DNA of 32,000 bases, from contig CAYHAA010000002.1 of assembly GCA_964354495.1 (NCBI GenBank), positions 1-32,000 on the forward strand, in the 5' to 3' direction. Positions within the stretch are counted from its first letter, which is position 1. The number at the start of each line of letters is the position of its first letter. This DNA is from an uncultured archaeon. Lineage in GTDB: Archaea; Asgardarchaeota; Thorarchaeia; Thorarchaeales; Thorarchaeaceae. Both the position numbers and the translations under genes were made by a program. A model generated the notes under the pieces. It was not told the DNA's origin and made no database searches. It saw only the letters and a program-made list of their open reading frames with translations. Positions 10,796 to 15,007 of the stretch are shown one piece after another.

Positions 10796-11611
10796 TCATT
10801 GCGTCTTGAGAGTGGCGTATTCTCTGGCTTCCTCAAGATGTCTTAGTGCGGCTTGCTTATGCTCACTTCTCATCAATTCATCTTTGATTGTTTTTAGATT
10901 GTCGTAGATATGACGATGAAGTTCAGAACTACTCAATGAAGCAAGATCAATGCTCCAGTCTTTGAACTCACGCAGGTAGTCAATGTCTCGTTTGATGAGG
11001 TATGATTCTTTCATGGGGGGATCATGACCAGCGATGATGAGTCTCCAATCAAGCTCGAGATACGACTCCAGACTTCGAATATACTGTTCAAAACTAGCGT
11101 GATTCAGGTAAGGAATTGGGCTCTCCACATTGTCCCCCACAAAGAGAACTCTATCTCTATCATCAAAGCAGGATGATGAATCAAGAGTATGCCCAGGAGT
11201 ATGGAAAAACGTCACCTCTTCATCCTCAAACCTCAAGCTTTCTTGAAATGTACGAGTGGGTGGTAGCAACTCGACTTTGCCTCTCATATGGTCTGCATAC
11301 TTCACGAGAGACGCCTCGCCCTCAGAAAGGATTCTCTGACGACAATGTTCATGCCCTACAATTGACGCATCCTTGAAGGCACCATTGCCCCAGTAGTGGT
11401 CATAGTCAGCATGTGAATTGAAGACGACTAGGGGCATGCCTGCACATCCCTCATCCTCTATCAGATGATGTACAATCTTCATTGGGTCATTACCAAGAAA
11501 TGTGTCAAGCACAAACACATGTTCATTTCCGAATATGATGTAGACATTGGTAGAATACGGATCGTCAAAAGACACCAATATTCCTCTACTACCTGTTCTG
11601 GATGAACTCAT
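10796..11611 (-). CDS. Metallo-beta-lactamase-fold hydrolase
   Basis: NSHADYDHYWGN, TPGHTLDS, FVGDN and IAGHD metal-binding motifs. Start moved to ATG 11611 (uncertain). Confidence 0.88.
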   Translation of the reverse strand: MSSSRTGSRGILVSFDDPYSTNVYIIFGNEHVFVLDTFLGNDPMKIVHHLIEDEGCAGMPLVVFNSHADYDHYWGNGAFKDASIVGHEHCRQRILSEGEASLVKYADHMRGKVELLPPTRTFQESLRFEDEEVTFFHTPGHTLDSSSCFDDRDRVLFVGDNVESPIPYLNHASFEQYIRSLESYLELDWRLIIAGHDPPMKESYLIKRDIDYLREFKDWSIDLASLSSSELHRHIYDNLKTIKDELMRSEHKQAALRHLEEAREYATLKTQ

Positions 11612-11726
11612 GCCTATCTCACATCTCTTTGAAATCAACTCGACGGTAGGGATTCTTGCGAGAATGTGTTTTCTCTAGGTTTCAACATTCGGATGTGGAC
11701 TATTGGATGACATTCACTTTGAAAGA

Positions 11727-13160
11727 CTAGCTATCAGCGATTCCTGCAAGTTTCTTTGCGATTTTCTTCCTCAGTTCTACATCATACCCTTTCAGGATAG
11801 CGACGTCCTCCATCTGAGGGCTCCCTCCACCATGAAGCCCAGCTACTGCCGCTACACCTCCAATCGAGGAACATAGCATATCTGAGAGAGCTCGGTATAG
11901 TCTGTAGACATCTTCAGACGACACGTCTTCTTTTCGTTTGATGTATTTCTGAAGGAGCGGCCCAATCTTCTTATCATAGAAGTCCTCCTCGGTAGGAAGT
12001 GTTGCAGGTAGTCCTCCTGCTAAATCAGCGAGAATCTCAAGCTCGTGGTAGTAGCTCTTCCCAGCATGCTTTCTACCAACATTGCAGAAGACAGCATCTG
12101 GAATCATCGTCCCTGATTCATCTTTTGATGCCTTATATGCCGCAGCAATTCCAGCCGCGTAGACCAGTTCGCTTACGCTAATCAAATCAGCAAGTTTTGC
12201 CTGCACATGCTTTTTGTCCTCCACTCCATTGTACTCACTTGCCAATGCACTGAAGCCGAGTATTATCTCCGAACTTGCTGGCTTGCATCCAGTATAGCTG
12301 TGTCGATGATAGAGTGCGAAGAGCAGTGCGGCATATCCTCCAAACGCATGTTCTCCTTTGCCTCCACTTAGAAAGACACGGTCGTTTGGAATGAAGACAT
12401 CGTCAAAGATGACGAAATTCTCCACATCTCCCATTTCACCCATTGGACACGCGAACTTCTCACGTTTGTGGCTGGATGCACGAGTAACAAGTTTTACACC
12501 GTCCCAATCGCCAGGAACCGCAAACGCAACAGCATATTGGTCTTCCTCAGGAGTGAGCATTCGTGTAGGAAGAACTATGATTTCCTCCGCCACGGCTGCA
12601 GCTGTTATGTGGTTCTTTGCCCCTCGAACAACAATACCGTCATCGCGATGTTCAATGACTCGTAGGTATAGATCAGGGTCTGCTTGTTCATGAGGTCTCA
12701 GGTTTCTGTTTCCCTTGGGATCTGTCTGTGCGCAACAGCCAACAATGTTGTTCTCTTGCCAATAATCCAGATACTTCACGAATCTCTGATTATAGGGTTG
12801 CCCAGTCATTGCTTCAGCTCGATGAGTGATGATTGACAGTGCATTCATTGCATCAATACCCATACACCGAAAAATGCAGCCCCCGGATTCGCGACATAAC
12901 TTCCTCGTCAATTCTTGTTTCTTTAGAAGGTCATCAACATTTTGATGGATATGTGTGAATCGATTGATTGTTCCAAATTTCCGAGATTCTACATTGAGAA
13001 GATCCTTGAACTCCGGGTCCTCGACTTTATCTAATGTTAGTGCCACAATATGAGCAACTGCTTGAAGGCGCGGGTCACTACGTTTGACATTTTTCCCGCC
13101 AATAATTACATTCGGTTTCATCTGAGAGATTTTCTGCAGATATTCGCTTCCGGTCTTCAC
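11727..13160 (-). CDS. 4-hydroxybutyryl-CoA dehydratase/vinylacetyl-CoA isomerase (AbfD)-like FAD/[4Fe-4S] enzyme (HpaB/AbfD family)
   Basis: TINRFTHIHQ, GCIFRCMG (Cx3C), QTDPKGNR, VRGAKNHIT, HRHSYTGCK and LHGGGSPQ. Homology starts at GTG 13160 (VKTGSEYL), so the 40-aa extension in the ORF track is dropped. Confidence 0.88.
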   Translation of the reverse strand: MKTGSEYLQKISQMKPNVIIGGKNVKRSDPRLQAVAHIVALTLDKVEDPEFKDLLNVESRKFGTINRFTHIHQNVDDLLKKQELTRKLCRESGGCIFRCMGIDAMNALSIITHRAEAMTGQPYNQRFVKYLDYWQENNIVGCCAQTDPKGNRNLRPHEQADPDLYLRVIEHRDDGIVVRGAKNHITAAAVAEEIIVLPTRMLTPEEDQYAVAFAVPGDWDGVKLVTRASSHKREKFACPMGEMGDVENFVIFDDVFIPNDRVFLSGGKGEHAFGGYAALLFALYHRHSYTGCKPASSEIILGFSALASEYNGVEDKKHVQAKLADLISVSELVYAAGIAAAYKASKDESGTMIPDAVFCNVGRKHAGKSYYHELEILADLAGGLPATLPTEEDFYDKKIGPLLQKYIKRKEDVSSEDVYRLYRALSDMLCSSIGGVAAVAGLHGGGSPQMEDVAILKGYDVELRKKIAKKLAGIADS

Positions 13161-13470
13161 GATGAACCACTGCAACACACACGAATCCCTAGTACTTAAC
13201 TTCAACGGAATCCCGACTAATGTCAAGATGCTTGTGACGAATTGTAATCCTGATGATTGTATAGAAAACATAGGGCACAACGTGAAAATACAGGGTTAAC
13301 TTTCTAACCATGCGATTTTGAGTGATTTGGCCCTGAGCAGTATGATGAGGTCAATCTCGAAACCACCCATTCTATTGGCCCTAGAGGTCACATACTCGTT
13401 TTCTGAATCAAAGAAATCTGGATTGTCAACTATGGAGAAAGGGTTTCTGCATACTCAGAAATTGAGTACA

Positions 13471-14079
13471 TTACCAATTTTCATCTTCACCAGTTTCTGC
13501 TTGTCCCCAGTCCTCACCTTCGGCAATTCTTACGACGCCTAATTCCAAGAGCCGATCAAAAGCTTTCTCAGCAGCCTCTTGAATCTGGGGCTCAAACTTT
13601 GCGCCTGTAATCACAAGCTTACCAGACCCGAAGAGGAGAATGACAACCTTTGGATCCCGCATTCTGTAGATCAGTCCGGGGAATTGCTCTGGTTCGTAGA
13701 GAGTGTTTTCAAGCTTCATGGTTGCAAGTTCGAGGTTCAACTCTGCTCCGAGGTTCGCACTGGCAACAATATTCTGAACCGTGATTATTGGTTTTCGGGA
13801 CATGTTGATTCCAGCTTCGTTGACAAGCTTCACGATTTTGTGTACTGCTCGCCTCGCCTCTTTTTCGGACTTGGCGCCGGTGCATACCATCTTGCCTGTG
13901 TTGAATACCAAGGTCGCAGTCTTCGGAGACTTCAGTCTGTATACGAGCCCCGGGAATCGTTCTGGGTCGAACTCCACATTTGGCATCGTCGCCGCTATTT
14001 CGTCCAGGTCGAATGACTGATTGAAAACAACAGATGCAACAACGTTCTCAATTCTAGTGGTCGGTGTTGGTCGGGGCAT
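13471..14079 (-). CDS. tbp: TATA-box-binding protein, downstream paralogue (202 aa)
   Basis: Two TBP repeats: IENVVAS/FPGLVYR/GKMVCTGAK and VQNIVAS/YEPEQFPGLIYR/GKLVITGAK. ATG 14079 is preceded by a GGAG RBS. Confidence 0.96.
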   Translation of the reverse strand: MPRPTPTTRIENVVASVVFNQSFDLDEIAATMPNVEFDPERFPGLVYRLKSPKTATLVFNTGKMVCTGAKSEKEARRAVHKIVKLVNEAGINMSRKPIITVQNIVASANLGAELNLELATMKLENTLYEPEQFPGLIYRMRDPKVVILLFGSGKLVITGAKFEPQIQEAAEKAFDRLLELGVVRIAEGEDWGQAETGEDENW

Positions 14080-14096
14080 GGAAAGGTCTCCGATGT

Positions 14097-14693
14097 CTAC
14101 CAATTGTCTTCTTCTTCTTCCTCGACTTGACCCCAATCTTCACCTTCTGGAATCCTAATCACTCCGAGCTCGAAGAGGCGATCTCTGGCCTTAAGCGCCG
14201 CTTCATCGATCTGGTCCTCGAATTTTGCGCCTGTGATGACGAGCTTGCCTGAACCAAAGAGAAGTATAACGACCTTGGGGTCCTTCATCCTGTATATCAA
14301 TCCTGGGAATTGCTCAGGCTCGTACATGGTATTCTCGAGCTTCATGGCTGCCAGTTCAAGATTCAGTTCAGCACCCAGGCTCGCACTTGCCACTATGTTT
14401 TGCACGGTGATTATTGGCTTACCCGTGACCGCGATTCCAGCATCCTTTAGGTTCTGGACAATTCGGTGCACTGCCCGTTTTGCATCTTTTTCGCTCTTGG
14501 CACCAGTGCAGACCATCTTGCCTGTTCTAAAGACAAGCGTGGCGGTCTTTGGTTTCTTGAGCCGGTAGACAAGACCAGGGAATTGTTCTGGATCAAATTC
14601 AACGTTTGGCATTGTGGCTGCTATTTCGTCCAAGTCAAACGGTTGGTTCACAACAACAGATGCAACAACGTTCTCAATTCTGGTATGGGGCAA
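14097..14693 (-). CDS. tbp: TATA-box-binding protein, upstream paralogue (198 aa)
   Basis: Same two-repeat TBP motifs. About 83% identical to its neighbour by hand alignment. Confidence 0.96.
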   Translation of the reverse strand: MPHTRIENVVASVVVNQPFDLDEIAATMPNVEFDPEQFPGLVYRLKKPKTATLVFRTGKMVCTGAKSEKDAKRAVHRIVQNLKDAGIAVTGKPIITVQNIVASASLGAELNLELAAMKLENTMYEPEQFPGLIYRMKDPKVVILLFGSGKLVITGAKFEDQIDEAALKARDRLFELGVIRIPEGEDWGQVEEEEEDNW

Positions 14694-14714
14694 TGGGCGT
14701 GTAATATGAATCTC

Positions 14715-14768
14715 TCCCTTTTATAGTGAATCGAATGATACATGAGTCCCTTTTAAAGGCGCTATAAA
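14715..14768 (-). promoter_or_regulatory. Tandem TATA-like boxes upstream of the tbp pair
   Basis: Minus-strand CTATAAAAGGGA (14715-14726) and CTTTAAAAGGGA (14747-14758), 32 bp apart, plus TTTATA at 14763-14768. Confidence 0.55.
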
Positions 14769-15007
14769 TGTGACGTATTGTCCAGATGGCAGTATAATCG
14801 GGACGACAAACCTGTGAGAGAGCGTTCCTCAGAAGCTTCTTTTGTCACAGAACAGATTCCCGAACTTGGTATTGCATGAACCGTGTTTCACAACTTTTTA
14901 TTGTTTTGCACAACTATACAGATAGCTAGAAAGAACGTAGATGGATATCAGCTGCCGCATAGCTTAAATGACGATGTCTGTTGCTGTATTGCCTTGAGGT
15001 GTTTTCA

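Follow-up and report, generated by a model that had tools for sequence, protein, structure and literature searches.

Two TATA-binding proteins (TBPs) are encoded in tandem on the minus strand of the 32,000-nucleotide stretch analysed here (the window; positions 1 to 32,000 of contig CAYHAA010000002.1, assembly GCA_964354495.1), which comes from an uncultured member of the Thorarchaeaceae. We consider the two genes, tbpA and tbpB, to be a conserved two-gene operon for two additional, alternative TBPs that would stand beside the canonical TBP of the genome and differ in the surface on which partners dock, and we put the probability of this reading at roughly one half. Throughout, tbpA is the upstream gene, tbpB the downstream gene and tbpC the unlinked canonical TBP gene (products TbpA to TbpC, or A, B and C); G000 is the present genome, G012 its sister species and G006 the other species of the genus that carries the pair. 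G000 is a metagenome-assembled genome (MAG) of 3.3 Mb in 51 contigs, with an estimated completeness of 97.7% and an estimated contamination of 3.8%; the names carried by homologues likewise place it in the Thorarchaeota (Asgard archaea).

A first, sequence-only reading of the window had described two complete tbp genes lying head-to-tail 17 nt apart, with a ribosome-binding site before the second, and this arrangement is borne out (Table 1). Two of its details require amendment. Its outer coordinate, 14693, is a TTG codon, whereas the first gene most probably begins at ATT 14705, and the pair had been treated as the full set of TBPs, whereas the contig contains another TBP gene, the third, at a distance of 193 kb. 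Across the seven variants compared, the spacer between the genes measures 17 or 20 nt and carries GGAG or GGGG.

Table 1. Coordinates in the window of the tbpA-tbpB genes and of the elements around them
Feature	Position	Strand	Description
tbpA	14097..14705	-	202 codons plus TAG (14099-14097); probable start ATT 14705-14703; two PF00352 repeats
tbpB	13471..14079	-	202 codons plus TAA (13473-13471); ATG at 14079; two PF00352 repeats
tbpA-tbpB spacer	14080..14096	-	17 nt; Shine-Dalgarno-like GGAG at 14091-14088, 8 nt before the tbpB ATG
Shine-Dalgarno-like element AAGGGAGAG	14712..14720	-	6 nt before the tbpA ATT; invariant in 8/8 distinct upstream sequences, 6-7 nt before ATT/ATA
Conserved upstream block GACAATACGTCAC-ATTTATAGC-GC-CTTTAAAAGGG	14748..14782	-	predicted operon promoter; two adjacent TATA-like boxes
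Third TATA-like box TATAAAAG	14718..14725	-	overlaps the start of the Shine-Dalgarno-like element; in 7/8 variants
Inverted repeat TACTCA-5 nt-TGAGTA	13452..13468	-	6 bp; 3 nt past the tbpB stop; possible 3' end signal, weak

Both products have the sequence features of complete TBPs. The two PF00352 repeats of TbpA and TbpB were recognised with E = 5e-62 and 4e-61, respectively (bit scores of 206 and 203, where the cut-off is 22.9), and the AlphaFold model of TbpA (mean pLDDT, the predicted local distance difference test score, 91.8) displays the complete saddle topology, in which S1-H1-S2-S3-S4-S5-H2 occurs twice; the best solved relatives are the archaeal TBPs 1MP9, 2Z8U and 1PCZ/1AIS. As DNA contacts of yeast TBP we assumed F99, F116, F190, F207, N69, N159, T124, T215, V71, V122, V161, V213, L114 and L205, the set known from the yeast and Arabidopsis TBP-DNA structures. 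When aligned to yeast TBP, the equivalent residues (N8, V10, F38, L53, F55, V61, T63, N99, V101, F129, L144, F146, V152 and T154) are identical in TbpA, TbpB and TbpC. The stirrup YEPEQFPG (residues 124-131), which we take to be the C-terminal stirrup region bound by transcription factor B (TFB) or TFIIB (yeast E186, E188 and L189), is also identical in all three proteins and in nearly all of the 45 aligned homologues. The proposal that A and B share one DNA-binding face is therefore upheld for all of the DNA-contact residues.

The separation of the two genes is old. A BLASTP alignment without gaps gave 163 identical residues of 197, in agreement with the earlier estimate of about 83% made by hand, and the nucleotide identity of tbpA and tbpB is 72.6%. 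Only 70 of the 163 codons for identical residues are the same in both genes (57% differ), and the same base occurs at 32% of the 76 four-fold sites, which is about random and rules out recent gene conversion between A and B. The non-synonymous divergence (dN) is 0.12, and the synonymous divergence (dS) could not be computed by the NG86 method because of saturation. Synonymous sites thus differ as widely as had been noticed from the VVIL codons, which had been quoted correctly, and the A/B separation is older than synonymous saturation. Comparisons between species, in contrast, gave dN 0.005, dS 0.453 and omega (dN/dS) 0.011 for tbpA of G000 vs G012, and dN 0.002, dS 0.491 and omega 0.005 for tbpB of the same genomes; for tbpA of G000 vs G006, dN was 0.007 at a dS of about 2.4, and tbpB is 95-97% identical to its orthologues in G012 and G006. 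Purifying selection on both genes is very strong.

Since dS between A and B is saturated, residue counts with an orthologue control were used for the regional analysis in place of dN/dS per structural element. The limits of the elements were taken from the AlphaFold model; the core comprises 180 residues, 43 of them in H2, the inter-repeat linker and H2'. Among the 28 core differences between A and B, 17 fall in these three elements (8 in H2, 4 in the linker and 5 in H2'; Fisher p = 5e-6), and the two helices alone hold 13 (p = 2e-4), so the clustering of substitutions in H2 and H2' that had been seen by eye is real. About 10 positions of H2 are exposed according to helical periodicity, and 7 of these differ. 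The remaining differences include V15F and P18S in the S1-H1 loop, Q37R and K47S in the N-terminal stirrup, and R56N, S105N, M123L and K137R; Q37R, which is aligned with yeast R98, is the Q/R difference previously placed in the first stirrup. At 17 of the 28 sites, the residue is invariant in the 16 intact canonical TBPs of the genus, and the state of each paralogue is fixed across its species. Positions 15, 82 and 89 are V/L/V in A, F/V/M in B and L/I/I in C, a pattern that looks like coupled repacking of the core.

The sequence-only reading had gone further and taken the clustering in H2 and H2' as a sign that the two copies may recruit different cofactors. The control does not support this step. 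In an orthologue pair at 85% identity, 52% of the differences lie in H2, linker and H2' (odds ratio, OR, 4.6), compared with 61% (OR 7.5) for A vs B, and in more distant orthologue pairs the share is 44-48%. The sites that differ between A and B are also generally variable TBP positions, with a mean entropy of 1.80 vs 0.80 in the 45-sequence alignment (p = 6e-8). The clustering is therefore real but generic and reflects the tolerance of the convex surface, and it does not by itself show cofactor specialisation, because similarly diverged orthologues show almost the same pattern. What is specific to A and B is the tempo: between them, the number of changes reached that of distinct families of the order, after which the two proteins froze.

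Because the features for bending TATA DNA and for recruiting TFB are kept in both proteins, we read TbpA and TbpB as alternative basal factors, which would act in the manner of the TBP families of haloarchaea and Methanosarcina. Together with the six TFBs of the genome, each would be able to start the assembly of a pre-initiation complex at ordinary TATA boxes. The surface distinguishing them would comprise the solvent face of H2, the inter-repeat linker, H2' and the S1-H1 loop, and it would select regulators or other partners on the convex side rather than DNA; since most of the differing sites are invariant in canonical TBPs and fixed in each paralogue, the likely difference lies in docking partners. 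A functional division between A and B is plausible.

The main rival to this reading holds that A and B are functionally equivalent, namely interchangeable general TBPs kept for dosage or robustness, with neutral or compensatory changes in H2 and H2' that drifted on a tolerant surface. The identity of the DNA and TFB interfaces agrees with it, as do the same regional clustering in orthologues, the general variability of the differing sites, and the differences at positions 15, 82 and 89 that resemble core repacking. However, it is rare for copies that are wholly redundant to persist beyond synonymous saturation, each paralogue has its derived states fixed across species at the 17 sites that are invariant in the canonical TBPs of the genus, and the conserved asymmetry of the start codons (AUU/AUA vs AUG) argues for distinct roles in expression. 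On this balance we regard equivalence as unlikely, although it survives better than any other competing explanation.

The history of the pair is less clear than its age. TbpA and TbpB share the derived residues K5R, L19F, I54V, S57T and V169A at sites that are invariant in canonical TBPs, and these five residues favour a common ancestor of A and B followed by tandem duplication. In DNA trees, by contrast, B is placed beside the canonical genes of G006 and G017, and A elsewhere. Approximately unbiased (AU) tests of the monophyly of A and B gave p = 0.026 for all codon positions, 0.062 for positions 1 and 2 and 0.157 for the protein; the four-fold sites are saturated and carry no usable tree signal. 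One other relationship was considered, as G000 tbpA showed an apparent excess of synonymous identity with one canonical gene (45%), but this was not reproduced by tbpA of G012 (36%) or of G006 (35%). In the genome G007, a B-like gene adjoins the metallo-beta-lactamase-fold gene known from G000 and no A is present, but the contig is only 4 kb long and belongs to a fragmented MAG. Thus, of the earlier suggestion of an old duplication kept under purifying selection, the age of the split and the selection both stand, but it is not established that A and B are direct duplicates of each other.

The most unusual detail of the pair is the start of tbpA. In the 8 distinct upstream sequences, which represent 18 loci, tbpA has ATT (6) or ATA (2) at the position where tbpB and tbpC have their ATG, and none of the canonical or common starts AUG, GUG and UUG is conserved at the start of tbpA across the variants. 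The aligned codon is ATG in 18 of 18 canonical genes and in 6 of the 8 B-type genes examined, the other two being TTA in G007 and ATT in L058, which has a single TBP. Between the ATT/ATA and Met28, the first in-frame ATG, lie 26 codons, and each of the 21 pairs formed by the seven variants differs there synonymously at 7-17 codons and non-synonymously at none; as only synonymous changes occur ahead of Met28, this stretch is therefore translated. Counted from ATT/ATA, A and B have exactly 202 codons each in the seven variants, and the NCBI annotation of G012 tbpA, also of 202 aa, begins at the same aligned codon.

Three other starts were examined and rejected. Initiation at Met28, as in 171-aa gene calls, is ruled out by the pattern of changes upstream of it; the TTG at 14693 is present only in G000 and G012, with CAG or CAA in the other variants; and an upstream ATG extension (218-aa calls) is found in one variant group only, in which a 1-nt indel breaks the conservation of the frame. 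We conclude that tbpA most probably starts at ATT 14705, and such non-canonical initiation has rarely been supported comparably well for a core gene of archaea. There is also a practical warning for annotation, as the conserved AUU/AUA start misleads gene callers: public gene calls for tbpA range from 144 to 220 residues, and most are cut at Met28.

An analogy is the bacterial infC gene, whose AUU start is used to set or regulate its output. Both cases combine a near-cognate codon, here a conserved AUU/AUA, with a good Shine-Dalgarno element on a core information-processing gene; infC, however, belongs to another domain of life, and nothing points to feedback in tbpA. By this analogy, the AUU/AUA start behind the conserved Shine-Dalgarno element would cause TbpA to be made in smaller amounts than TbpB from one transcript, so that B would be the major and A the minor product. 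The comparison extends to the stringency of start selection by eIF1 and aIF1, since archaeal aIF1 has been reported to discriminate against non-canonical start codons (PMC6237735), and the output of TbpA might thus respond to start-codon stringency.

Upstream of tbpA, the block at 14748-14782 could be aligned in the 8 distinct variants, and the sequence beyond it could not. The whole conserved stretch is about 95 nt long and includes ATTTATAGC and the TTTAAAAG/TTATAAAAG box (14768-14750), with one or two further TATA-like boxes in most variants. The pattern of the block occurs once in the window against 0.02 occurrences expected, and the block is the probable promoter of the operon. A promoter at TATAAAAG would start the transcript downstream of the conserved ATT, and this box is therefore more likely a part of the leader. 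It may be observed that three TATA-like boxes (ATTTATAGC, CTTTAAAAG and TATAAAAG) lie within 65 nt (14718-14782, minus strand) upstream of a gene for a TATA-binding protein, and autoregulation of the operon through these boxes is conceivable.

Downstream of this promoter, co-transcription of tbpA and tbpB, which the sequence-only reading had assumed, is likely, because the spacer is only 17-20 nt long and without an AT-rich box, the adjacency is invariant, and a contig from a sediment metatranscriptome library bridges the junction, the last being weak evidence. The bridging contig, 174 nt long and 98% identical, covers 14039-14200 and so spans the spacer, with 104 nt of tbpA on one side and 41 nt of tbpB on the other. 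In RNA run X19, little of the stretch was represented; a second contig from it (36 nt matching) belongs to another TBP and is uninformative here. Each of the two genes has its own Shine-Dalgarno element.

These features also bear on another explanation, in which TbpA is a low-abundance regulatory or antagonistic variant that vies for TATA boxes or TFB with one of the other two proteins, TbpB or TbpC, or that binds its own upstream boxes and thereby autoregulates the operon. It would account for the conserved AUU/AUA start and for the conserved block in which the variants have three to four TATA-like boxes over the 80 nt ahead of tbpA, and TbpA carries changes at sites that are invariant elsewhere (K80Q, P160D, and N56R next to the intercalating F55). 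Nevertheless, the residues for productive binding of DNA and TFB are all intact in A, nothing marks it as defective, and several TATA-like strings are common in AT-rich promoters. We therefore hold this explanation to be improbable, more so than equivalence.

Among the 28 species genomes of the genus, the tandem was found in three, G000, G012 and G006, and the synteny between G000 and G012 around it extends over more than 16 kb. It is also present on a more distant metagenome contig (L060) and in all 13 Joint Genome Institute (JGI) contigs that contain an A-type gene with downstream room (8/8 P0137 places and 5/6 P0138 places, the sixth being without downstream sequence). Independent assemblies of the public runs X1 and X5 contain it as well, one of them on a 20.6-kb contig at 96.5% identity. 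Given this recurrence in independent assemblies, an assembly or binning artefact, be it one TBP gene doubled through a collapsed or chimeric assembly or two strains mixed together, is refuted and has virtually no weight even for a 51-contig MAG with 3.8% estimated contamination, as the copies share only 72.6% DNA identity and the same arrangement exists in other species' genomes, on many JGI contigs of up to 51 kb and on the 20.6-kb contig of an independent run, with synteny to the sister species over more than 16 kb; the earlier view that the pair is genuine is thus confirmed.

The pair stays together while its surroundings change between lineages. In G000 its upstream neighbour is a membrane protein gene, vs an MTTB-family methyltransferase gene in the JGI contigs; in contigs L063-L076 and L060, the latter gene lies upstream of the pair and a 223-aa gene of no known family downstream. 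Adjacent TBP genes were seen only in the clade to which G000 belongs, and the event behind tbpA-tbpB is one at the level of the genus, confined to a subgroup within a single genus of Thorarchaeota. Extra TBPs as such are common in the Asgard phylum: about one third of 151 sampled Asgard genomes have at least four PF00352 repeat matches, i.e., at least two TBP genes, and some have 7 or 8 matches. To describe the pair as an early form of TBP specialisation, as had been suggested, is an overreach, since it occurs in three of 28 species genomes and about a third of the sampled Asgard genomes already possess two or more TBPs. A literature search that most subscription journals lay beyond turned up no paper dealing with TBP paralogues of Thorarchaeota or of any other Asgard archaea, and the literature searched contained no mention of multi-TBP gene content in about one third of Asgard genomes.

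The state of the canonical gene provides an open lead. tbpC (L045 2460-3070, which corresponds to about 206960-207570 of G000 contig C2, outside the window) is by sequence and tree the orthologue of the single canonical TBP of most species of the genus. In G000, one base is missing between L045 positions 2558 and 2559, and the frame is broken after codon 33; in G012, tbpC (L037 2044-2652) has an in-frame TAG in its acidic tail. The two copies carry 10 and 13 private substitutions vs 0-1 in the other canonical TBPs of the genus, including the changes P35S, K140T and I87K at deeply conserved sites. A tRNA-type mini-intron was ruled out as the cause of the break, the lesion being a single missing base. 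The search for an intact close allele of tbpC returned best matches that were only 88-92% identical and was therefore uninformative.

Because the canonical copy is relaxed and apparently broken in G000 and G012, the pair may carry most of the TBP function in these two species. An extension of this idea is that the operon took over from the ancestral TBP, with the A:B ratio set, and perhaps regulated, at translation through AUU/AUA under the stringency of aIF1. We consider this extension doubtful; if true, translation would act as the gate for a basal transcription factor in an organism closely related to eukaryotes.

Several points weigh against the reading of tbpA-tbpB as an operon for alternative TBPs with different docking surfaces, and against the larger role for it just outlined. 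The enrichment of differences in H2, linker and H2' that also exists between orthologues and at variable sites could have arisen by drift on a tolerant surface with later fixation, and for the convex face of archaeal TBPs no partner is known in this organism. The RNA support is a single 174-nt contig with a depth of 3.3, from a library that possibly contains DNA, and a lower output of TbpA than of TbpB is probable only by extension from other systems. No TFB was found to co-occur with the pair in a non-exhaustive comparison, in which the one lineage-restricted candidate tested (on contig C16) proved unique to G000. With regard to tbpC, an assembly error could explain the frameshift, the comparison of G000 with G012 still gives an omega of only 0.039, and in G006 an intact tbpC that evolves slowly exists alongside the pair; for the latter two reasons, the decay of tbpC, if real, would be confined to the G000/G012 branch and of recent date.

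In archaea, alternative TBPs and TFBs take the place of sigma-factor switching, and they have been studied almost only in haloarchaea and methanogens. With three TBP loci, of which A and B are intact and separately conserved, and six TFB genes, G000 resembles these multi-TBP/multi-TFB systems. The haloarchaea, such as Halobacterium salinarum with TbpA-F, likewise have several TBPs and several TFBs per genome, with copy numbers that vary between close relatives; their copies, however, are mostly dispersed and often plasmid-borne, whereas the Thorarchaeota pair, from another phylum (Asgard), lies in one probable operon 17-20 nt apart with one non-AUG start. The multiple TBP/TFB sets of haloarchaea are thought to give a choice of promoters and regulons (PMC7289017, PMC3261711), some haloarchaeal TBP copies have been inactivated while one remains essential, and the Halobacterium activator GvpE binds TBPs in vitro (PMC4390858). 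Methanosarcina acetivorans has a similar number of copies, three (TBP1, TBP2 and TBP3), with one primary TBP and accessory TBPs for which condition-dependent expression and distinct knockout effects are reported (PMC5112694 and the study it cites). The primary copy is dominant and intact there, whereas the canonical copy of G000 appears damaged and its two extra copies are adjacent and likely co-transcribed.

A more distant parallel is offered by the eukaryotic TBPL1/TRF2 and TBPL2/TRF3, in which the saddle fold is kept and surfaces are altered for other partners, although TBPL1 has lost TATA-contact residues that are all kept in A and B. The H2 surface of eukaryotic TBP, to which the sequence-only reading had appealed, contacts TFIIA, Mot1, TAF1 and Brf1, for which we know of no recognised counterparts in the present organism. 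Taken together, extra TBP copies are a known archaeal theme, and the Asgard pair adds a further, well-documented example of it without establishing any new principle; its unusual detail is the non-AUG start, and its open lead is the decay of the canonical copy. Current concepts are unchanged unless a functional split or a replacement of the canonical TBP is demonstrated. As a strongly constrained and probably operon-encoded pair, TbpA and TbpB provide concrete Asgard proteins with which to ask whether the convex face of TBP served partner choice before eukaryotes.

Further TBP and TFB genes of the genus were noted in the course of this work. A fourth, much more divergent clade of TBPs, about 65-72% identical to the canonical TBP, is present in G007 (L040), G024 (L042) and G020 (L041). 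TFB genes number roughly four to eight in the genus; five of the six in G000 belong to genus-wide types, and the remaining one (C16:17508-18383) has no orthologue in the 27 other genomes of the genus searched, its best match being at 39% identity. Two TFB genes of G000 are themselves in tandem (C1:666530-668131), an arrangement seen across the genus.

At the 3' end of the pair, a terminator scan found none, its rule being bacterial-type (rho-independent, with sigma-70-type promoters) and not applicable to archaea. The inverted repeat behind tbpB is kept in G012 with one change and is not found in G006. Downstream of the pair, the stretch 10796-13280 (minus strand) of the window holds an HpaB-family gene, with a fold like that of 4-hydroxyphenylacetate 3-hydroxylase and 4-hydroxybutyryl-CoA dehydratase, together with the metallo-beta-lactamase-fold gene that also adjoins the B-like TBP gene of G007.

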